Notes: generated by a model not told the origin, from the sequence alone. Shown: positions 1 to 44,257, counted from the first letter of the stretch. The stretch is 44,257 nucleotides of DNA from Elusimicrobiota bacterium (GCA_041662295.1 JBAZSR010000003.1:13470-57726); one strand, 5' to 3'. A program made the numbers and translations.

Positions 1-1654
1 CGTCGATCTTCGGGGTCGCGGACCAGGCCAGGCCGTCGTCCCGCTTAAACTCCAGCGGTTCTCCGACGCGCAGTGAGAGCCCGCGCTCGAGCTCCCGATT
101 GACAGGCATGGGGGAAAGCCGGTCGCCCTGTCGGGGCACTCCGTGGAAGCGGACGACTCCGTCCATGACGAAGTTGACGAGGTGGAAGGGCAGGCTCGCC
201 GCTCCGGGCGCGGGGGTCGCCTGGACCTGGAGATGGAGGTGGGGCTCCAGCGAATACCCGGAATTGCCGCATTCGCCGAGCTTGCGGCCTGCCAGTACGT
301 AGTCTCCGACCGCGACGAGGACGGAGTCCTTGCGCAGGTGGGCGAGGATGGCGCAGACGCCGGAGAGGGAGCGCACGACCACGTAGTTGCCCCAGTTCTT
401 CTGGATCTCGGCCCTGCCGACAGGATTGTCCGGCAGGATCGAACAGACCGCGGCCACGTGGCCGTCGAACGGGGACAGCACGGGGCGGCCGAACGCGTGG
501 TGAGGCTCGAGGCTGCCGCCGTCTCCAGAGAAGGTCTTGCCGTCCTCTCCGAGGACCACGAAGTCGAGGCCGTGCCGCCATTGGCCGGTGTGCGTCAGCG
601 GGCCGTCGAAGCCCTGCTGGACCGCCCAAGTCCCCTCGAAGGGGCAGAACACGCCGACCTCGCTGCCGCCGTGCCGCAGCCGCAGCAGGCGCAGGCGGTC
701 GATGGTCTCCTCGGGCGTGCCGCCGTAGTCCGCGGCCAGGCGTGAGGGCTGGGTGCTGCGCACGCTGCGCAGGGCCAGCAGGACCGTGACGTTGAAGGGC
801 AGGGCCGTGATCGGGATGCGGAAGATCTCCCAGAAGGCCAAGCCCCCGGCCGTGACGAGACCGCCCATCAGGGTGCACGCGGCGGCCAGTCCCGTGGACG
901 AGGCCGACGGCACGAGGAAGACCGCGGCGATGGCGGGGAAGATGAGCGAGTAGTTGAAGAAATGGGGGTCGCTGGTGTTGAGCGGCGTCAGCTGGGTCAG
1001 GCTCTCCGCGAGGCACCCCAGGGAGAAGCCGATGACGGAGAAGGCGGCCATCAGCGGGGAGCGGCACGCGATGGCGGCGAGCAGGATGGCGCCGAAGAGG
1101 GGGTCCGGCATGCACAGGCAGGCGCCGAGCGAGCGCAGGAAATGCGATACGCCGGCCGGCAGGCCAGCGAAGACCGCGGGAGCCAGGTCCGTGAAGTACC
1201 AGGTGGCGTCGGTCAGGTTGGAGAACCGGCGGCCGGCCAGGGCCAGCAGCATGGCGGCCAAGGTGAACGGCACGGAGAGCACGGGCAGGCCCAGCAGGCT
1301 CAAGGCGGACTCGAGGAACAGGGTCAGCAGCAGGGTCAGCCCCGCCGTCAGGCAGATGAGGAGGCCGACCCCCGGCTCGAGCTTGAACAGGTAGCCGGCG
1401 AAGAGGCCGATGAGCAGTGAGTTGTAGAGCACGAACCCGCGGTAGGCCAGTGCCGGCCGGGAGCCCAGCAGCTGGAGCACGACGAAGCCGCTCAGCAGTC
1501 CGAGGAGTCCGGCCGCGCCGACATTCGGGTGGAGGAAGGTCGCGGCGGCCATGACCGCCCCGACCCAGGGGCTGTCGATGAAGAAGATCGCCGAGTAGGC
1601 GCCCGCGAGCGACCGGGCATGGCGGGACCAGGAGCCGTCAGGAGTCGTGTCCAT
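1..1654 (-). CDS. Fusion protein: N-terminal urea-transporter (UT)-like polytopic membrane domain + C-terminal M23 (LytM-type) metallopeptidase domain; C-terminus runs off the window (partial)
   Basis: Absent from the ORF track because no stop lies in the window. Hand translation of the minus strand from ATG 1654 gives MDTTPDGSWSRHARSLAGAYSAIFFIDSPWVGAVMAAATFLHPNVGAAGLLGLLSGFVV...RGFVLYNSLLIGLFAGY..., with UT-like motifs and multiple hydrophobic segments down to ~nt 790. This is followed by ...GPLTHTGQWRHGLDFVV...GNYVVVRS...GECGNSGYSLEPHLHLQVQ (M23 HxxxD and GxSGxSxxPHLH zinc motifs). An in-frame TGA at 1682-1684 makes ATG 1654 the first possible start; it overlaps the upstream gene by 17 nt. 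Listed ORF 45..1115 is the Pro/Arg-rich wrong frame. Confidence 0.8.
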   Translation of the reverse strand, partial: MDTTPDGSWSRHARSLAGAYSAIFFIDSPWVGAVMAAATFLHPNVGAAGLLGLLSGFVVLQLLGSRPALAYRGFVLYNSLLIGLFAGYLFKLEPGVGLLICLTAGLTLLLTLFLESALSLLGLPVLSVPFTLAAMLLALAGRRFSNLTDATWYFTDLAPAVFAGLPAGVSHFLRSLGACLCMPDPLFGAILLAAIACRSPLMAAFSVIGFSLGCLAESLTQLTPLNTSDPHFFNYSLIFPAIAAVFLVPSASSTGLAAACTLMGGLVTAGGLAFWEIFRIPITALPFNVTVLLALRSVRSTQPSRLAADYGGTPEETIDRLRLLRLRHGGSEVGVFCPFEGTWAVQQGFDGPLTHTGQWRHGLDFVVLGEDGKTFSGDGGSLEPHHAFGRPVLSPFDGHVAAVCSILPDNPVGRAEIQKNWGNYVVVRSLSGVCAILAHLRKDSVLVAVGDYVLAGRKLGECGNSGYSLEPHLHLQVQATPAPGAASLPFHLVNFVMDGVVRFHGVPRQGDRLSPMPVNRELERGLSLRVGEPLEFKRDDGLAWSATPKID

Positions 1655-2966
1655 GGCGGGGGAGGTCGGACTCGAGGGCCGTCACGTCCGAGAGGGTCTC
1701 GGCGCGGCGGATGACGAAAGGCTTGCCGGACTCGCGGATCATGACCACCGCGGGCCGGTACTGGATGAACTGCATCCACTGCGCGACGTTGTAGGCTCCG
1801 ACCGGGGAGAGGATCAGGGACTGCCCGCGGGAGAGCCGCGGCAGGAGGATCGCCTCGTCGACCACGTCGATGTTCATGCAGAGGGGCCCGAGCAGGATGG
1901 AGGGCTCCATGACGCCGCCCGTCTCGCGGTCGAGCTCGATCTTGAACTTGTACCAGGTCGCGGTGTAGAGGAGGTTGACCCCGGCGTCGAGGATGTAGGC
2001 CCTGCGGCCGTCCGGCAGCAGCTTGTCTGCGCAGACTGAGGTGATGAGGAAGCCCGCCTCGTCGACCAGGTGGCGCCCGTTCTCCAGGTAGAGCCGCGGG
2101 GGCGACTTGCGCGAGAGGAGCCACTTGAGCTGGCTGCCCATGGCCGCGGCGTAGGCCTCGACGCCAGGCACCGCGATCTCGGGGGGCTGGTAGACTCCCT
2201 TCAAGTGGCTGCGGCTCGGGATCCCGCCGCCCAGGTCGAGGTACTCGATGGGCTTGCCGGTCAGGCTCTCGGCCGTCCGGATGAAGGCGCTGAGCTTGGC
2301 CGCTGCGCGGCCGTAGGCCGAGGGATCCAGGATGAAGGTGCCGAGGTGGCAGTGAACGCCGGCCAGCTTGAGCGCCTTGCTGTTGATGATCCAGCGCACC
2401 GCGGCCGCGGCCTGGCCGCTCTCCAGGTTGAAGCCGAAGCGCGACCAGACGGGGTAGATGCCCGCGTCAAGGTTGACCCGGATGCCGACCTTGACGCGGA
2501 CCTTGAGCGCCTTGCCCGCGGCTTCGAGGTCCTCGAGCTCGTTGAAGTGGTCGACGTTGATGAGGGCCCCGTCGCGCACCGCGCGCTTCAGCGCCGCCAT
2601 GGGCTTGCAGGGGCCGTTGAAGATGATCTGGTCGCCTGGCACGCCGAGGCCGCGCGCCTTGTCGTATTCGAACGGGCTGACGACCTCGGCCAGGGCGCCC
2701 TCCTGGTGGAAGACGCGGCAGACCGCGGAGAGGTAGTTCGTCTTGTAGCTCCAGCCGAAGCGCACGTTGGGATAGACGCCATGGACCGCGGCGTAGGCCT
2801 GGCGGTACTTCTCTCGCATGACGCGCTCGGAGAAGACGAACAGGGGCGAGCCGAAATCCTTGACGAGGTCCTTCACCGCGGCTCCCTCGACGGACTCGCG
2901 GATGAGCGGATAGCTCTGCGCCGATGAGCCGTGCTTGGCGTAGAGGGGGTTGCCGACGCGCACCAT
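1638..2966 (-). CDS. PLP-dependent decarboxylase, Orn/DAP/Arg decarboxylase family (fold-type III)
   Basis: Distal 442 codons of listed ORF 1638..3263. Start moved to ATG 2966 (MVRVGNPLYAKHG...) because the upstream part is Pro/Arg-rich read-through overlapping the next gene. Family motifs: FGWSYKTNY (PLP-lysine region), LDLGGGIPS (Gly-rich loop), ENGRHLV, GPLCMNIDV. Confidence 0.85.
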   Translation of the reverse strand: MVRVGNPLYAKHGSSAQSYPLIRESVEGAAVKDLVKDFGSPLFVFSERVMREKYRQAYAAVHGVYPNVRFGWSYKTNYLSAVCRVFHQEGALAEVVSPFEYDKARGLGVPGDQIIFNGPCKPMAALKRAVRDGALINVDHFNELEDLEAAGKALKVRVKVGIRVNLDAGIYPVWSRFGFNLESGQAAAAVRWIINSKALKLAGVHCHLGTFILDPSAYGRAAAKLSAFIRTAESLTGKPIEYLDLGGGIPSRSHLKGVYQPPEIAVPGVEAYAAAMGSQLKWLLSRKSPPRLYLENGRHLVDEAGFLITSVCADKLLPDGRRAYILDAGVNLLYTATWYKFKIELDRETGGVMEPSILLGPLCMNIDVVDEAILLPRLSRGQSLILSPVGAYNVAQWMQFIQYRPAVVMIRESGKPFVIRRAETLSDVTALESDLPRHGHDS

Positions 2967-2989
2967 GCTGGGCCTGCTGTAGCGTTCGC

Positions 2990-4036
2990 TCACGCGCCCT
3001 CCCGGTTCCCTTTGGACAGGAGATTCTCGAAGGCCGACAGGTCCGTCACGAACTCCGAGGTCTGCCGCACGCAGAACCTGCCGGCCGCGTACTCGTCCTG
3101 GGCCGAGCAGCGCCCCCCCGCGACGAGCTCGAGGAGCTGGCGGGGGAGGTTCACGCCCGCGCCCGTGGCGAAGTGGACCCAGGCCGGGAAGCGAGGGTTG
3201 ATCTCGATGAGGTAGAGCCCGTCCTTGGCGCGGATGCACTCGAGTTCGAAAGGGCCGCGCCACTTGGTGGCGCGGCAGAAGCGCTCACTGAGGCGCTCGA
3301 GTTCGGGGTCGTGCACCGTGACCGCGGTCCAGACCTTGCCTAGGTGGGTCGTGAGCTGTTTCTTGATGACCACGCGGCCGCGGAGCTTCCCCTTGGCGTC
3401 CGAGAGGCCGATGAGGTTGAGCTCCGGCCCGTGCACGGGTTCCTGGAGCAGGAGCGGGTAGCCCCACTCCGCCGCGATCTCCGTGCCCTTCATGGCCGCG
3501 GCGTCGAGGTTGTGCACGAAGTAGGCCTTGTAGTACTTGCCCTTCACGATGGCCGGCAGGGGGAAGTCGGTCCGGAGCCTGCCGATCAGCTCGTCGATGC
3601 CGTGGACCACCGCGGTCCTCGGGTAGCGGCAGCCGGTCTTCTTCGCGAGGGCCGCCAGGCGATCCTTGCTGCGCAGGTCGAACTGCGCTTCCGTGGGGAG
3701 CAGGGTGCGGATGCCGGCCTTGGCGAGCTCAGCCTGGTGGCGGATGAGCAACGGCAGCTCGACGTCGAGGCAGGGGATCAGCACGTTCATCCCGGTCTTG
3801 GACCGGACCTTGTCGAGGCCGCTGGACAACTCGCTCCAGCCGCGCGTCGGGTAGGGCATGAGGAAGCTGTTCTCGAAGAGGTCGGTCAGATAGTTGCCGG
3901 GGTCGTGAACATCGTAGCTCAAGCCGATGAGCCTGATTCCGGGGAACGCGGCGGCCAGGCCCCGCGCCACGGCCACCCCAGGGCCGGGGTTGTCCGTGGC
4001 ATTGATGCCCGAGACTCCGACGCAGAGGTCCTTCAT
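2990..4036 (-). CDS. ATP-grasp fold carboxylate-amine ligase, substrate unknown
   Basis: Listed ORF 2990..4255 trimmed to ATG 4036 (MKDLCVGVSGINATDNPGPG...), which forms an ATGA overlap with the stop of the PqqD-like gene. PAIVKGKYYKAYFVHN...WGYPLLLQEPVHGPELNLIGL...LYLIEINPRFPAWVHFATGAGVNLP is a typical ATP-grasp signature. Confidence 0.8.
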   Translation of the reverse strand: MKDLCVGVSGINATDNPGPGVAVARGLAAAFPGIRLIGLSYDVHDPGNYLTDLFENSFLMPYPTRGWSELSSGLDKVRSKTGMNVLIPCLDVELPLLIRHQAELAKAGIRTLLPTEAQFDLRSKDRLAALAKKTGCRYPRTAVVHGIDELIGRLRTDFPLPAIVKGKYYKAYFVHNLDAAAMKGTEIAAEWGYPLLLQEPVHGPELNLIGLSDAKGKLRGRVVIKKQLTTHLGKVWTAVTVHDPELERLSERFCRATKWRGPFELECIRAKDGLYLIEINPRFPAWVHFATGAGVNLPRQLLELVAGGRCSAQDEYAAGRFCVRQTSEFVTDLSAFENLLSKGNREGA

Positions 4037-4272
4037 GAATTCGAGCGGATGATGTCGATCTCGGCCTTGAAGACCAGCAGGTCCGTCATGGCGCGGTCCT
4101 GGTCGATGCCGAACTTCTTCGCGACCTCGGCCGCGATCTGCTCGTCCGTCAAACCGCGGCGCAGACGCTCGATGATGGCCTTGGCCGCGGGGTTGAGCTG
4201 GAAGCTCTCCCCGGTCTGCGGGTCGAACGCCATGCCTGTCGCACTGAGGTTCCAATGCTTGATGTCGGCCAT
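4033..4272 (-). CDS. PqqD-like small protein (RiPP-recognition-element type peptide-binding domain), 79 aa
   Basis: C-terminal 79 codons of listed ORF 4033..5013: MADIKHWNLSATGMAFDPQTGESFQLNPAAKAIIERLRRGLTDEQIAAEVAKKFGIDQDRAMTDLLVFKAEIDIIRSNS. The pattern (beta strands, then LN-x-aa-x-i-x-x-L, then a three-helix segment with ...D-x-x-x-F...) matches PqqD family proteins. G-rich SD (GAGGGGGGGAGA) lies 6-7 nt upstream of ATG 4272. Confidence 0.75.
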   Translation of the reverse strand: MADIKHWNLSATGMAFDPQTGESFQLNPAAKAIIERLRRGLTDEQIAAEVAKKFGIDQDRAMTDLLVFKAEIDIIRSNS

Positions 4273-4303
4273 GTCCGGTCTCCCCCCCTCTCGGGGCGGC
4301 CCG

Positions 4304-5065
4304 TCAGCGCCGGCCCCTGCCGCCCCCGCCTCCGCGGCTGTTGCGGGAGCCGGCTCCGCGATTGCCCACTCCCTGGCCGGAATTGCCGCCGCCCCGGTGG
4401 TGGCCGCTGTTCCCCGCCTTTTCCCTCTGGGTGGACCTGTTCTCGGCGCGGTCGCGGACATCCTCCCTGCGGTCGGCCCTGTTCTCAGCGCGGTCTCGGA
4501 CATCCTCTTGCCGGTCCTTCCTGTCCTCTTTCCGGTCGCGGACATCTTCCCTGGCGTCGCGCACGTCCTCGCGCTTGTCGCGGAGCCCGCCGTTGTGCCT
4601 GGCGTCACGGACATCCTCCCGCCTGTCGCGGACGTCTTCCCTGCGGTCGACCTTGTTTTCCGCGCGGTCTCGGACATTTTCGCGGCGGTCGGCCCTGTTC
4701 TCGGCGCGGTCGCGGCGGTCCTCTTTGCGGTCGCGGACGTCCTCCCGCTGGTCGCGGCGCTCCTCTTTCCTGTCGCGGACCCGCTCTCCCGTCCCCTGGG
4801 CGTCGTTCGCCGCGCCCGGTTGGTTGTTGCCGCGGTCCTTGTCGTGGCCGTAGGCGTTGCCGCCGGTCGGGACCGCTGGGGTGGCGCCGCTGCCAGGGAG
4901 GCCCGGGTCAGCCGGGACCGTGCCGGAGCCTGTCTGCTTGTCGGACCCCGCGGCCTTGTCGCTGGCGTTGTCCGACTGCGCTTGTAAAGGAAGGGCCGCG
5001 AATGCCGCCCCAAGAGCGACGATCAAGGCCAGGCCCAGCCAGTTCAGCGCGCGATGATTCTTCAT
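4304..5065 (-). CDS. Secreted, extremely charged heptad-repeat protein (253 aa) with Gly/Arg-rich C-terminus
   Basis: Listed ORF 4304..5152 trimmed to ATG 5065, preceded by GGAGGAGA 8 nt upstream. Sec-type signal peptide MKNHRALNWLGLALIVALGAAFAALPLQAQ|S. Residues 93-213 are ~17 consecutive x-E-(D/N)-(V/R)-(R/A)-D-R heptads (REDVRDR, KEDRRDR, AENRADR...). Tail is ...GHHRGGGNSGQGVGNRGAGSRNSRGGGGGRGRR. Confidence 0.8.
   Translation of the reverse strand: MKNHRALNWLGLALIVALGAAFAALPLQAQSDNASDKAAGSDKQTGSGTVPADPGLPGSGATPAVPTGGNAYGHDKDRGNNQPGAANDAQGTGERVRDRKEERRDQREDVRDRKEDRRDRAENRADRRENVRDRAENKVDRREDVRDRREDVRDARHNGGLRDKREDVRDAREDVRDRKEDRKDRQEDVRDRAENRADRREDVRDRAENRSTQREKAGNSGHHRGGGNSGQGVGNRGAGSRNSRGGGGGRGRR
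4427..4789 (-). repeat. ~17 tandem 21-bp (heptad-coding) repeats inside the secreted-protein gene
   Basis: Periodicity is visible in all translated frames of this stretch (e.g. + strand SRTSSLRS... repeats). One unit is irregular (RHNGGLRDK, 9 residues). Confidence 0.85.
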
Positions 5066-5135
5066 ATTCAGTGTCTCCTCCATCGAGATGTCGTTTGTCA
5101 GGGGCCGGAGCAGCCTCAGTCCCCCTCCACGATAT

Positions 5136-5161
5136 AGACGTAAAGGCCGCATTTTGGTTTA
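5136..5161 (-). promoter_or_regulatory. Putative ECF-type promoter of the repeat-protein/PqqD/ATP-grasp/decarboxylase/M23 operon (TAAACC-N15-CGTCTA)
   Basis: Minus strand reads gTAAACCaaaatgcggctttaCGTCTAta, ~70 nt upstream of ATG 5065. It has the same -35/-10-like words and identical spacing as the motif upstream of the divergent ECF sigma gene. AAC-N16-CGT is the generic ECF promoter architecture. Confidence 0.45.
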
Positions 5162-5231
5162 CTTGGAAAATTGCTTAAAACTGCAATCGATTTTATAGCA
5201 TACGAAAATCGTCCCCGCCAGCGGCATCCAC

Positions 5232-5257
5232 TAAACCTCCGGCATGTCTTCGCGTCT
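5232..5257 (+). promoter_or_regulatory. Putative autoregulated ECF-type promoter of the sigma/anti-sigma pair (TAAACC-N15-CGTCTT)
   Basis: cTAAACCtccggcatgtcttcgCGTCTTaa ends 18 nt before the GTG start at 5276, within the only AT-rich stretch of the region. Confidence 0.45.
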
Positions 5258-5275
5258 TAATGACAGGCAGGCAAC

Positions 5276-5842
5276 GTGAGCGACCACGACTTCGACGCTG
5301 AGATCGTTGAGCGCAGCCGCAAAGGCGATGCCGAGGCTTTTGGGACCCTGGTCGCCCATTATCAGCGCCTGCTGACAGGCGTCGCGTTCGGGGTGGTGGG
5401 AGACCCGGCAATGACTGAGGATCTGGTGCAGGAGGCGTTCATCGCGGCATGGAAGGCCCTTCCAAAATATAGGGGGGACGCCAGCTTCAAGAACTGGCTC
5501 TGCCGCATCCTTCTCAACAAGGCTTATTCCGCGCTGCGGTGGGGCCGCTTGCGCAAGTGGGTCAGCCTTGACGGGCCTGCTGAGACGCCCTGGGCCGAGA
5601 CTCTTCCGGACACGGCCCCGGACGCAAGCCCGGAGGGAGTCCTTCTCAAGGAAGAGCGCTCAGCAGCCGTGCGCAAGGCTGTTGAGGTCCTCCCGCTCCA
5701 GCAGAGGACAGCAGTGGTCCTGCGCGCCAACGGTCTGGACGTGGCCGAGGTGGCGGCGGCAATGGGCGTGGCAGAGGGAACGGTCAAGGCGCACCTGCAT
5801 CACGCGCGCGCCAAGCTCTCTCCGCTGGTGGAAGGGACATGA
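5276..5842 (+). CDS. ECF (group 4) sigma-70 family RNA polymerase sigma factor
   Basis: 188 aa, GTG start. Region 2 (DLVQEAFIAAWKAL...F.NWLCRILLN) and region 4 HTH (LPLQQRTAVVLRANGLDVAEVAAAMGVAEGTVKAHLHHARAKL). Confidence 0.9.
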   Translation: MSDHDFDAEIVERSRKGDAEAFGTLVAHYQRLLTGVAFGVVGDPAMTEDLVQEAFIAAWKALPKYRGDASFKNWLCRILLNKAYSALRWGRLRKWVSLDGPAETPWAETLPDTAPDASPEGVLLKEERSAAVRKAVEVLPLQQRTAVVLRANGLDVAEVAAAMGVAEGTVKAHLHHARAKLSPLVEGT

Positions 5843-7350
5843 ACCAGGATAACGACAACGAGTTCTGGTCCAAAACAGGGGACAGCTTAAAGCCCAGGCT
5901 GAGCGAGGCTCAGTGGACGGCTCAGCGGGCCCGCATCATGGGCCGGCTGGCCCAGGGCTCAGGCGCTGGCCGGCTGGCGGCCTGGGTCGCTGCTGCTGCC
6001 CTCGCGTGCCTGGCCGGCCTGGGCATCCTCCTGCCCTGGGGGAAGTCCAAGCCCGCGCCCGAAGGCCAGACCGTGACCCAGGCTCCGGTCCAGATATCCT
6101 CAGCAGCTCCCGCGGCTGCGGCCGGCGCATGGGACAGCCGCATCACCATGACGCAGGGCACGGTGACGTTCTTCGTCCGCGGCAGCACCGAGGGCGTCCC
6201 CGCGGTCGAGGGCATGCCGCTCGAGGAGGGCGACCGGGTGCGGACCGGCGCAGACGGCCGGGCGGAGCTCGCGCTCTCGGCCGAGAGCATCATCGACCTC
6301 GGGCCCGTGTCCGCGATCACCCTCTCCGACCTCAGGCAGGACCAGACCCTCCTCGGTCTCGACGTGGGCACGCTCGTCGCCAAGCTCAGCTGGAAGCTTC
6401 TTCCGGGCAGGCAGCTCTCGGTCGTGACCCCGACCGCGGTCTGCGCGGTGCGCGGCACCGAGTTCGGCGTGGAGGTCCAGGAGGGCGGCGGGACCGCCAT
6501 CGGCGTCTTCGACGAGGGCAGGGTGGCGGTCCGGACCGCGGGGGATTCCGGCGTCGAAGAGACGATGCTCGAGCCCAGGCAGGAGGTCCGAGTGCCTGCC
6601 GGCGCTGTTCCCGAGACCGAAGCGCGGGACGGTCGTCGCTACCTCCGCGTAGGCGAGCTTTCCAGCCTCAAGCCCCAGCAGGAGCGGATGAATGTCGTGC
6701 GCGAGCGGCCGCAGGCCCTGGCCGGCGCGTGGAAGCCGATGGCTCTATCCGAGCGCGAGCAGGCCCGTGGCCGCGTCATGTCTGAGCACCAGGGCCGCAT
6801 GCAGGCCATGCCTCTTGAACAGCGGCGTTCCATGCAGGAGCGCGTGCGCCAGTCTCAGCCCGGCCAGGCCGGGCCTGGAGACCGCGGTCCTTCCCATGAC
6901 TCCGGGCAGAGGCGGCAGGATGGCGGCCGGAGCCAAGACCGCGGCCGGCCCGGGGAGGAAGGGGCGAGGAAGCCCGAGGAGCCTGGAGGGCCGGCTCAGG
7001 AGCGGGACATGCCTCCGGACAGCCGGCCCCGGCAGGCTGAACCAGGGCAGAGGCTCGTCCCTGAGTCAGGCCAGCGGCCCGGGACCGAGCCAGGCCAGGA
7101 TCGCGAACCCGGGGCCCAAGGGGATCGTTCACCCGGCGGCATGCAGGAACGGCAGGGACCTGAGCGCGGTCAGGCTCCAGGGGCCCGCCAGGGGCCAGAG
7201 CGCCAGCAAGGCGCCGGGCAGAGGCAGGGCCCTGAGCGCAGGCAAGGGCCGGACCGCAGGCCCGGCGGCAACATGCGTCCTCCGGGCGGCCAGCACCGGC
7301 CGCAGGGCGGGGGCCAGAGGCGTCCCGCGCCCGGCGGCCGTAGGCATTGA
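5839..7350 (+). CDS. FecR-domain anti-sigma factor: single TM, periplasmic FecR domain, long Gln/Gly/Pro/Arg low-complexity tail
   Basis: ATGA overlap with the sigma gene. TM is AAWVAAAALACLAGLGILL. FecR-like segments: GDRVRTGADGRAELALSAESIIDLGPVSAITL ... VVTPTAVCAVRGTEFGVEV. The last ~170 aa are repetitive (RQGPERxQG...). Confidence 0.8.
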   Translation: MNQDNDNEFWSKTGDSLKPRLSEAQWTAQRARIMGRLAQGSGAGRLAAWVAAAALACLAGLGILLPWGKSKPAPEGQTVTQAPVQISSAAPAAAAGAWDSRITMTQGTVTFFVRGSTEGVPAVEGMPLEEGDRVRTGADGRAELALSAESIIDLGPVSAITLSDLRQDQTLLGLDVGTLVAKLSWKLLPGRQLSVVTPTAVCAVRGTEFGVEVQEGGGTAIGVFDEGRVAVRTAGDSGVEETMLEPRQEVRVPAGAVPETEARDGRRYLRVGELSSLKPQQERMNVVRERPQALAGAWKPMALSEREQARGRVMSEHQGRMQAMPLEQRRSMQERVRQSQPGQAGPGDRGPSHDSGQRRQDGGRSQDRGRPGEEGARKPEEPGGPAQERDMPPDSRPRQAEPGQRLVPESGQRPGTEPGQDREPGAQGDRSPGGMQERQGPERGQAPGARQGPERQQGAGQRQGPERRQGPDRRPGGNMRPPGGQHRPQGGGQRRPAPGGRRH

Positions 7351-7386: not shown

Positions 7387-7728
7387 TCAGGCTTGGCCTG
7401 ATTCGAGCTTCTTGATGCGGCCTTCGTGGTCCGTGACCTGGACTTTCATCTCGGTCAGGGATTGGCCGTGGAGTGTCGTCGCCCTGTCGTAGTTCTGGGA
7501 CTTCCCCGCGAAGGAGTCGATGGCTCCGAGGATGCGGTTGATGTCTTCCTTTGTGGCAAGGCCGGCCAGGGTCTCTTTGACTTCGTAGAGATCGGACTGG
7601 GTCTTGACGATCTCCAGGGCGAGGCGGTGGACGGAGGTGTCTATCTTCTGGTCGAGTTCCGCCCGCAATGCGCGGAGGTCTCCCTTCGTGGCCGGCTGAT
7701 CCGCGTCAGCGTGGAGCATTGAGTCCAT
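7387..7728 (-). CDS. Small predicted coiled-coil protein, unknown function (paralogue A, 113 aa)
   Basis: Complete ORF with GGAGGAAT SD. N-terminal 15 aa and C-terminal ~60 aa are near-identical to ORF 8393..8713; the centre is divergent. Confidence 0.7.
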   Translation of the reverse strand: MDSMLHADADQPATKGDLRALRAELDQKIDTSVHRLALEIVKTQSDLYEVKETLAGLATKEDINRILGAIDSFAGKSQNYDRATTLHGQSLTEMKVQVTDHEGRIKKLESGQA

Positions 7729-8392: not shown

Positions 8393-8713
8393 TCAGGCTT
8401 GGCCTGATTCGAGCTTCTTGATGCGGACTTCGTGATCCGTGACCTGGACTTTCATCTCGGTCAAGGATTGGCCGTGGAGTGTCGCCGCCCTGTCGTAGTT
8501 CTGGGACTTCCCCGCGAAGGAGTCGATGGCTCCGAGGATGCGGTTGACGTCGTTCTTCGTGGCCATGGTATGCCGGATATCTTGGACGTCAGATTGAAGC
8601 TTGATGATCTCCGTGACAAGGCGGTGGACGGACGCATCCACCTTCTTGTCGAGCAGGTGGAGCTCTCCCTTCGTGGCCGGCTGATCCGCGTCAGCGTGGA
8701 GCATCGGGTCCAT
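8393..8713 (-). CDS. Small predicted coiled-coil protein, unknown function (paralogue B, 106 aa)
   Basis: Complete ORF; see paralogue A. Confidence 0.7.
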   Translation of the reverse strand: MDPMLHADADQPATKGELHLLDKKVDASVHRLVTEIIKLQSDVQDIRHTMATKNDVNRILGAIDSFAGKSQNYDRAATLHGQSLTEMKVQVTDHEVRIKKLESGQA

Positions 8714-39748: not shown

Positions 39749-41277
<1,529 letters not shown>

Positions 41278-41442
41278 AACACTTCCTTAGTCTCACGACT
41301 AGGGGAGCCTGTCGACCCCGCTTAGCGGGATGCCTGTTGGCACGCAAATGCTACGGAAGAGTCAAGGCTCTTCCAATCATCGTCCGCTCCTCATTATATG
41401 AGGAAGGTCCCTTTTCCGCCCTGCAGTCCTGGGCGAGACCTA

Positions 41443-41514
41443 GGGCTCGTAGCTCAGGGGTAGAGCACACGCTTGATAAGCGTGGGGTCGGAGGTTCGAG
41501 ACCTCCCGGGCCCA
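41443..41514 (+). tRNA. tRNA-Ile (anticodon GAT)
   Basis: Cloverleaf folds by hand: acceptor GGGCTCG/CGGGCCC, anticodon loop CTTGATAAG, T-arm GGAGGTTCGAGACCTCC. CCA not encoded. Confidence 0.93.
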
Positions 41515-41553
41515 TGTTTTTCAGCGGTTCCGGAGGCTGGGCAGCCGATTTCA

Positions 41554-41626
41554 GGGCTCATAGCTCAGCTGGGAGAGCGCCTGCTTTGCAAGCAGGAGGT
41601 CGCCGGTTCGAATCCGGCTGGGTCCA
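41554..41626 (+). tRNA. tRNA-Ala (anticodon TGC)
   Basis: Acceptor stem with G3:U70 identity pair, anticodon loop CTTTGCAAG, T-arm GCCGGTTCGAATCCGGC. CCA not encoded. Confidence 0.93.
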
Positions 41627-41647
41627 CGGAGCGGCACGACAGATTTT

Positions 41648-41660
41648 CGTTCATTGACAA
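41648..41660 (+). promoter_or_regulatory. Second boxA-like element in the tRNA-23S spacer
   Basis: CGTTCATTGACAA; same core as the leader copy. Confidence 0.45.
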
Positions 41661-41795
41661 TCGGCGTTCCAACACCTCGATGCACCGTATCCTGTAAAGA
41701 CCCCGAAAGGGGGCGGGGAGCGGCGAGCGGAGGGAAGGAGAACATAGAAGCGTCTCACTGCCGTATTCTGCATTGCAGAGTGCGATGGAAGAATA

Positions 41796-44257
<2,462 letters not shown>

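Follow-up and report, generated by a model that had tools for sequence, protein, structure and literature searches.

A charged-heptad protein of an Elusimicrobiota bacterium: a candidate periplasmic helical hairpin linked to ECF sigma factors

The REP gene and the anatomy of its product

We analysed a 44,257-nucleotide stretch of DNA from an Elusimicrobiota bacterium (GCA_041662295.1, JBAZSR010000003.1:13470-57726; hereafter the window), centring on the gene of a charged-heptad protein that we call REP. The gene lies on the minus strand and runs from an ATG at 5065 to a stop codon at 4304-4306, encoding 253 amino acids (aa); a Shine-Dalgarno sequence, GGAGGAG, is found about 10 nt 5' of the start. 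Divergent from it are the genes for an extracytoplasmic function (ECF) sigma factor and a FecR-type anti-sigma factor, whose first 4 nt are shared with the end of the sigma gene, while a cassette of PqqD-like, ATP-grasp, decarboxylase and M23-peptidase genes follows downstream (Table 1). Judged from sequence and structure prediction, REP is a member of an undescribed family of putatively exported proteins. Its most likely role is that of a stress-response protein in the periplasm, and it is very probably an exported helical hairpin under ECF control.

Table 1. Features of the REP locus in window coordinates (nt, nucleotides; GC3, G+C content at third codon positions; pLDDT, predicted local distance difference test; PLP, pyridoxal phosphate)
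Feature	Position	Strand	Basis or remark
REP coding sequence, including stop codon	4304..5065	-	translation, GC3, separate assembly, homologues
Signal peptide, residues 1-28 (MKNHR, hydrophobic core, LQA/Q)	4982..5065	-	sequence read by eye; comparable in homologues
Gly/Pro/Thr/Ala-rich linker, residues 29-92, predicted disordered	4790..4981	-	pLDDT 42-54; kept in L009
Predicted N-terminal hairpin arm, ~9 heptads, residues 93-156	4598..4789	-	AlphaFold helix 89-156, heptad layout
Turn H157-N-G-G160, family signature	4586..4597	-	homologue alignments; non-helical in both models
Predicted C-terminal hairpin arm, ~8 heptads, residues 161-214	4424..4585	-	AlphaFold helix 161-223, arm symmetry
Gly-rich tail ending GGGGGRGRR, residues 215-253, predicted disordered	4307..4423	-	pLDDT <50
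Putative ECF-type promoter of REP, TAAACC-N16-GTCT, 70 nt 5' of the ATG	5136..5161	-	motif match, kept in L008 and L009
Second motif copy, 18 nt 5' of the sigma gene, putative autoregulated promoter	5232..5257	+	motif match
ECF sigma factor gene, divergent from REP	5276..5842	+	Sigma70_r2 9e-19, r4_2 1.4e-14
FecR-domain anti-sigma factor gene, 503 aa, long Arg/Gly/Gln/Pro-rich C-terminal tail	5839..7350	+	PF04773 FecR 1.5e-10
PqqD-like gene	4033-4272	-	probably co-transcribed, not part of the REP family
ATP-grasp enzyme gene (PRK12767-like)	2990-4036	-	ATG overlaps the PqqD stop
Fold-III PLP decarboxylase gene (LysA- or FslC-like)	1638-2960	-	probably co-transcribed
Urea-transporter/M23-peptidase fusion gene, ~700 aa	from about 1681 off the left window end	-	probably co-transcribed

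A first-pass annotation of the window, made from its sequence, had placed this gene at the head of an operon, 31 nt upstream of the PqqD-like gene. Its coordinates, its position as the first gene of the operon and the gap (4273-4303) all hold, and we add that gene and operon lie on the minus strand. The reading frame that it had claimed is equally sound: GC3 is 0.82 (0.52 at second positions), and together with hundreds of protein-level homologues this leads us to reject a wrong frame. If a longer alternative open reading frame (ORF) from 5152 were used, its start would lie upstream of the putative promoter. Likewise, the repeat tract is real and an assembly artefact is rejected, as far as testable. 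A Logan contig, from a separate assembly of one groundwater run, matches the whole 1.5 kb without a difference or gap at a word depth of about 6x and gives an identical gene call, and a metagenome-assembled genome (MAG) of Elusimicrobia contains an orthologue in the same layout, with 61% identity across 195 aligned residues. No further copy of the repeat protein was found within the 44-kb window, no promoter in a sigma-70 scan of 3900-5400, and no terminator-like site was seen on the minus strand of 4273-4303.

The protein begins with MKNHR, a 21-residue hydrophobic stretch and LQA/QS, which by eye is a signal peptide of the Sec and signal peptidase I type. The Gly/Pro/Thr-rich linker behind it is well conserved in the L009 orthologue (SDKQTGSGT(V/I)PADPG.PG.GATPAVP.GGNAYG), and the chain ends in GGGGGRGRR, so that the signal peptide (as far as it can be judged by eye), linker and terminus are all present as first described. 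Residues 93-213 comprise 39 R, 25 D, 17 E, 10 V, 8 A, 6 K and 6 N, and the mature chain holds 58 basic and 50 acidic residues. The initial description of about 17 strict heptads was right in its periodicity, the residue autocorrelation being 0.46 at lag 7 and 0.50 at lag 14 versus 0.05-0.24 at other lags; the tract is not continuous, however, since about nine heptads are followed by a 9-residue break, RHNGGLRDK, that shifts the register before about eight more. At the DNA level, Tandem Repeats Finder reported periods of 21 and 42 bp with only 62-73% matches, indicating that the repeats are old and diverged rather than a product of recent slippage.

A family of heptad arms around a conserved turn

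Homologues were sought by a word-indexed search and by a profile search over 1.84 billion cluster representatives, with family clusters defined at 50% identity. The word-indexed search yielded 260 proteins. The profile search, a check that the first-pass annotation had proposed, yielded 678, 306 and 69 matches at E<=1e-3, 1e-10 and 1e-30 respectively; biased composition inflates these scores, though the matches have a specific anatomy in common. Source labels include Elusimicrobia, Omnitrophota, Gemmatimonadota, Chloroflexota, Spirochaetota, Victivallales and Micavibrio. Together with the periodicity, these homologues bear out the earlier view of REP as a genuine, Sec-signal-bearing repeat protein of alternating charge. 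Scans of REP against Pfam and NCBIfam (E<=0.01) returned no family, bar one irrelevant weak match, a sequence search of the PDB gave nothing at E<=1, and tblastn against plasmids with the low-complexity filter on gave no match. A literature search on the repeat strings, charge-zipper or hairpin proteins, the downstream cassette and DUF3106 found nothing relevant.

Members of the family have a signal-peptide-like N-terminus and runs of R-E-D-[V/I]-R-D-R that enclose a single mid-region copy of a turn, within the pattern E-D-V-[R/W]-D-A-x-H-[D/N/E]-G-G-x-x-D-[K/R]-x-E-D. By a crude test, 97 of 120 homologues have a hydrophobic N-terminus comparable to that of REP. In alignments of 49 and 58 sequences, the Glu and both Asp of every heptad near the turn are invariant, as is the G-G pair; the turn His is invariant in one of the two (H157, G159 and G160 among the 49 aligned homologues) and exceeds 90% in the other. 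Across 78 domain instances the turn reads H (74%), D/N/E, G (100%), G (100%), and the heptad positions are E (96-99%), D/N (96-99%), V/I/R, R/W/L, D (97-99%), R/A/K and R/K/Q. The basic positions are thus looser (R 55-79%) than the acidic ones (96-99%).

The flanks and the number of hairpins vary. A Gly-rich tail with a basic end occurs in 28 of 120 homologues, and 12 homologues have in common the tail motif G[VI][RK]D[HR]GxG[VI]xxGKGQG, of which the window tail resembles a diverged version. In this subfamily (P0001, P0013, P0028, P0036, P0065 and others; loci L064, L065 and L073) HR and then a poly-Gly stretch with a K/R end often come after the motif, and many of the proteins have (K/R)EENPEKF motifs repeated in a helical region at the N-terminus; neither the tail motif nor this region matches a Pfam family. 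Some relatives contain two to four hairpins in tandem. Among three examples (L106:4395-5822, L100:2059-2841 and L077:4467-5525), one has four tandem hairpins, and in two others the HxGG turn is replaced by a helical connector of about 35 residues (…DDAIKA…L…) between equally long arms.

AlphaFold2, run with the family alignment, predicted helices at residues 89-156 and 161-223, both with pLDDT >90, separated by a break at HNGG 157-160; the rest of the chain was modelled as disordered. The repeat core modelled alone reached a pLDDT of 89. Among 81 domain instances, the arms range from 3 to 10 heptads, are equal in 58 and within one heptad of each other in 71 (r = 0.72). Such equal and co-varying arm lengths would be unexpected for one long helix, and we infer that the arms pair as an antiparallel hairpin. 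On a helical wheel with 100 degrees per residue, E1, D5 and D2 lie at 0, 40 and 100 degrees and form a continuous acidic face, with V3, R7 and R4 at 200-300 degrees. Model and alignments together indicate an antiparallel hairpin with acidic ridges, its packing being deduced, and not a single helix.

ECF sigma genes and a shared promoter motif

The motif TAAACC-N15-17-GTCT has exactly two matches in the window (0.08 expected), one ahead of REP and the other ahead of the sigma gene. In two related loci (L008 and L009), the intergenic region that separates these genes in the window is conserved around AAGTAAACC-N16-GTCTATA. Beyond these, the exact motif stands 17-68 nt (mostly about 40) before the REP start codon in 20 of 75 other family loci, and in 24 when one mismatch is allowed. 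Elsewhere in the 75 loci it has only 2 matches, a 123-fold enrichment before REP. In all 20 promoter-bearing loci REP begins with a similar signal peptide, and in 12 of them a sigma gene is absent from the available flank. In L100, the motif precedes both a sigma operon and the REP gene. ECF promoters typically have an AAC ... GTC character, which TAAACC-N16-GTCT displays.

The genes themselves also recur together. A sigma gene lies on the same strand as REP in 16 of 80 metagenome loci, 13 times downstream and three times upstream. Of the 52 loci with enough flank, 13 have a co-oriented ECF sigma gene no more than 1.5 kb downstream of REP, and a small anti-sigma-like ORF usually comes next. 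Three loci (L071, L077 and L100) have the order sigma, anti-sigma, small ORF, DUF3106, REP, with a zf-HC2 domain confirmed in L071; by these operons DUF3106 may belong to the same regulon as REP. A Micavibrio locus reads REP, sigma, small ORF (putative anti-sigma) and two Metal_resist genes. All 17 of 17 sigma matches are co-oriented with REP, and since they fall into 11 clusters at 60% identity, many of the linkages are independent. Control loci totalling 248 kb contained no sigma gene (binomial P ~7e-13 under a generous background). The best NCBIfam match of the window sigma factor is PRK11922, and those of several other linked sigma factors are PRK11922 or SigW-like, all below the cut-offs.

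Most ECF sigma factors transcribe their own gene from the promoter they recognise, which is the standard route to their motifs (PMC3817407). At this locus the same bipartite -35/-10 motif stands before the sigma gene and before REP, at a promoter-like distance and kept in orthologues. We conclude, in silico only, that REP is a putative conserved direct target of one group of ECF sigma factors, and that the same sigma factor would drive the downstream cassette in the window organism. Among the roles suggested when the window was first annotated, the link to the FecR/ECF pair is therefore the one we favour, given that the family recurs in ECF sigma operons and that the same putative promoter precedes REP and sigma.

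The FecR protein itself carries a tail of about 190 residues (6766-7347, plus strand) that is rich in Arg/Gln/Gly/Pro/Glu, contains QGPER-like repeats and ends in ...GGQRRPAPGGRRH. This end resembles the Gly/Arg terminus of REP, and it is conceivable from the two sequences that they represent a shared C-terminal recognition signal.

Elsewhere in the window, two ORFs at 7387-7728 and 8393-8713 (both on the minus strand) encode paralogous proteins of 106-113 aa that are almost the same in their C-terminal halves (…GAIDSFAGKSQNYDRA.TLHGQSLTEMKVQVTDHE.RIKKLESGQA) and match no Pfam family. The short ORFs between them look by eye like fragments of larger genes. A ribosomal RNA operon occupies 39749-44257, with 16S at 39749-41277, two tRNAs at 41443-41626 and a 23S gene from 41797 that is cut by the window end; it is the only Rfam feature across the whole window and accounts for G+C falling there from about 0.68 to about 0.55.

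Possible roles and known systems

The best explanation, to which we assign a probability of roughly 0.6, is that REP is an exported charged hairpin made from an ECF promoter and acts as a multivalent electrostatic binder. The divergent ECF sigma factor, restrained by the FecR-type anti-sigma factor, would recognise TAAACC-N16-GTCT, so that an envelope signal would lead to the synthesis of REP together with the products of the PqqD/ATP-grasp/decarboxylase/M23 genes. Once the signal peptide is removed, the mature protein would have three parts, namely a disordered linker, the hairpin and a flexible tail of Gly and Arg. At 1.5 Å per residue the hairpin would measure about 100 Å, its two antiparallel α-helices composed of E-D-[V/I/R]-[R/W]-D-[R/K/A]-[R/K] heptads and joined by the H-[D/N]-G-G turn. 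Presumed packing would create a thin core of V/I and Arg side chains, and the near-invariant E1, D2 and D5 on one face of each helix would form continuous carboxylate ridges on the outer side. These ridges may serve multivalent electrostatic binding in the periplasm, with divalent cations or metals as the most likely ligand. REP could also exert feedback on the anti-sigma factor, in the way that CpxP, ZraP and CnrX act in their own systems.

The proposal of cation or metal handling in the periplasm draws on the acidic conservation, on modules fused to the hairpin and on the Metal_resist neighbourhood. In some homologues the hairpin is fused to EF-hand/Excalibur or RcnB domains, His/Cys-rich tails or an LTxxQ-like region, the sole recognisable modules in the family. 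Pfam profiles found no EF-hand/Excalibur loop of the DxDxDG type in REP itself. Cation binding by REP is a tentative suggestion and, like feedback, a speculative one. A bolder version, which we consider rather unlikely, makes the hairpin family the signature periplasmic component of an unrecognised, phylum-spanning ECF module with TAAACC-N16-GTCT as its defining promoter, in which the carboxylate ridges would sense a cationic signal (a metal, Ca2+/Mg2+ or a polycation) and relay it to, or buffer it for, the anti-sigma factor. If true, ECF signalling would have a sensor fold of a new kind.

Several observations weigh against the electrostatic-binder reading. The charge of REP is near-balanced, unlike that of classical high-capacity cation buffers. 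About 70% of the family loci lack both a sigma gene next to REP and the exact motif, L008 has no REP at the corresponding position, and the anti-sigma factor of the window is of the FecR type as opposed to the zf-HC2 or small unclassified candidates of other operons. A search of sequencing runs recovered the REP sequence in three DNA groundwater runs only, as contigs, and in no RNA run. On the structural side, the heptad frequencies were counted in arms that had been delimited by their acidic positions, which makes this count partly circular; the two alignments, with 49 and 58 sequences, are independent of it. The predicted template modelling (pTM) scores of the REP models were low, 0.35 and 0.45, leaving the relative helix placement uncertain, so that the packing rests mainly on arm-length symmetry. 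Foldseek found no analogue in the PDB for either the full-length or the core model, probably because long plain helices are uninformative.

The downstream genes bear on a different proposal, namely that REP is the precursor of a ribosomally synthesised and post-translationally modified peptide (RiPP) or another substrate of the PqqD-like, ATP-grasp and decarboxylase proteins, for instance one that is extended at its C-terminus and decarboxylated before export. The first-pass annotation had raised this and doubted it in view of the signal peptide. REP lies directly upstream of the PqqD-like gene, and the genes at 1..4272 (minus strand) are probably co-transcribed with it, given a 31-nt gap free of terminator-like sites; judging from NCBIfam names, PqqD-like proteins often bind precursor peptides. 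The cassette is a conserved unit in its own right. The window ATP-grasp protein is 81-87% identical to proteins of Elusimicrobia groundwater MAGs, and a genome scan returned 27 loci besides the window that match it, labelled Elusimicrobia, Bdellovibrionota/Oligoflexia, Campylobacterota or Gammaproteobacteria; most of them have PqqD, ATP-grasp and decarboxylase matches together, commonly also a tetratricopeptide repeat gene. More than 20 genomes from at least four phyla (L008-L034) have all four core genes together, and the cassette is possibly related to the envelope or peptidoglycan. REP stands in front of it only in the window and in L009. At least 24 cassette loci from at least four phyla lack REP, and a search of 16 cassette loci turned up no conserved small precursor ORF ahead of PqqD. 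In L008, a close relative, PqqD is the next gene after sigma, about 235 nt away, and the same promoter block is conserved in front of it. Conversely, homologues of PqqD, ATP-grasp, decarboxylase or FecR occur in 0 of 89 other REP-family loci. In the absence of mutual co-occurrence, the adjacency reflects shared regulation and not a substrate-enzyme pair. With its 253 aa and Sec-type N-terminus, REP is also no short cytoplasmic peptide, and it does not co-occur with genes of the RiPP recognition element (RRE) or modifying enzymes. The earlier doubt was therefore justified; we reject the RiPP precursor and regard the substrate proposal as scarcely credible.

The remaining alternatives concern how the hairpin is built and what it contacts. 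An extended single α-helix of the ER/K type, acting as a spacer or ruler, had been suggested from the stable helices that E/R heptads can form, and it would accord with the alternating-charge heptads, the very high helix confidence and the low pTM, AlphaFold being unsure how the helices sit mutually. The invariant central G-G, the near-invariant H and the co-varying, mostly equal arms indicate a hairpin instead, and in REP like charges stand at i/i+4 (E1-D5, D5-D9) where Glu-to-Lys/Arg bridges from i to i+4 would be expected; we accord this alternative very little probability. That REP is solely a feedback ligand, its hairpin binding the periplasmic part of the anti-sigma factor to tune sigma release without any ion-binding role, as CpxP does for CpxA and RseB for RseA, would explain why REP is the first gene of REP/sigma/anti-sigma operons in 13 loci, why it is divergent from sigma-FecR in a layout like that of cpxP versus cpxRA, and why the C-termini of REP and the FecR protein are both Gly-rich with an Arg-rich end. 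It fits poorly with the 12 of 20 motif loci that have neither a sigma nor an anti-sigma gene in the available flank, and since the associated anti-sigma factors are unrelated (FecR, zf-HC2 and small unclassified ORFs), a single conserved binding partner is unlikely; we hold it to be improbable. A protective polyampholyte or chaperone, Spy-like or akin to late embryogenesis abundant (LEA) proteins and hydrophilins, would use non-specific electrostatic contacts to shield envelope proteins or polymers under stress. The putative stress-sigma control, the extreme hydrophilicity and disordered flanks of REP, one homologue with an LTxxQ-like, DUF4890-type N-terminal region and one neighbourhood with Metal_resist proteins all suit such a role. 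Non-specific protectants, however, seldom retain a fixed turn and three invariant residues in every heptad, and neither Pfam nor NCBIfam gave REP a match to LTXXQ or Metal_resist; we judge this role quite improbable.

On the present in silico evidence, REP is a predicted stress-regulon periplasmic accessory protein of unusual architecture with a clear regulatory signature. Its family has no Pfam or NCBIfam entry and no solved relative, and we found no paper on it. One group of ECF sigma factors gains a conserved promoter motif, a conserved putative direct target that is easily recognised in sequences and a testable idea of that target's ligand. The fold may be of interest to protein engineers as a natural hairpin, tunable from 3 to 10 heptads per arm, that would be held almost wholly by charged residues. 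A false lead is also removed: the PqqD/ATP-grasp/decarboxylase/M23 cassette is an independent conserved unit, whose substrate is to be sought elsewhere.

Two comparisons concern single features of REP. With RiPP precursors recognised by PqqD-like (RRE) proteins it has in common the position directly upstream of a PqqD-like gene, whereas the missing co-occurrence, the Sec signal, the large repetitive body and the family's own distribution set it apart. Dense alternating charge, a heptad-like period and high predicted helicity are reminiscent of ER/K single α-helix domains and designed charge-zipper hairpins. Unlike these, REP has a conserved central turn, equal arms and its acidic residues on one face, and it is bacterial, predicted to be exported and by inference under sigma-factor control; the uninterrupted helix and the opposite-charge i to i+4 pairs of ER/K domains are both missing.

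The closest functional analogy is with CpxP, Spy and ZraP (LTXXQ; Metal_resist, PF13801). These small periplasmic proteins carry a signal peptide, form long α-helical hairpins and count among the direct targets of an envelope-stress regulator; for ZraP and Spy there is a link to metal stress, and cpxP is transcribed divergently from its regulator genes. REP resembles them in its predicted helix-turn-helix, its signal peptide and its divergence from regulator genes. By model and sequence only, its arm symmetry would fit pairing and its promoter appears to be of the ECF type. The analogy is one of function and not of sequence: REP has no Pfam or NCBIfam match, no LTXXQ motif and no hit to the LTXXQ/Metal_resist profiles, its helices are charged heptads with one hydrophobic position in seven, and its regulator would be an ECF sigma factor and not a two-component system. 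CnrX of the CnrYXH system is the membrane-anchored periplasmic metal sensor of an ECF sigma/anti-sigma pair, and its helical bundle coordinates Ni/Co with His/Met/Glu ligands. REP differs from CnrX in its cleavable-looking signal peptide, in lacking such a ligand set and any detectable homology, and in often lying away from a sigma gene. Like CnrX, it would be a periplasmic helical protein encoded with an ECF sigma and anti-sigma factor and is proposed to couple the binding of cations to sigma release.

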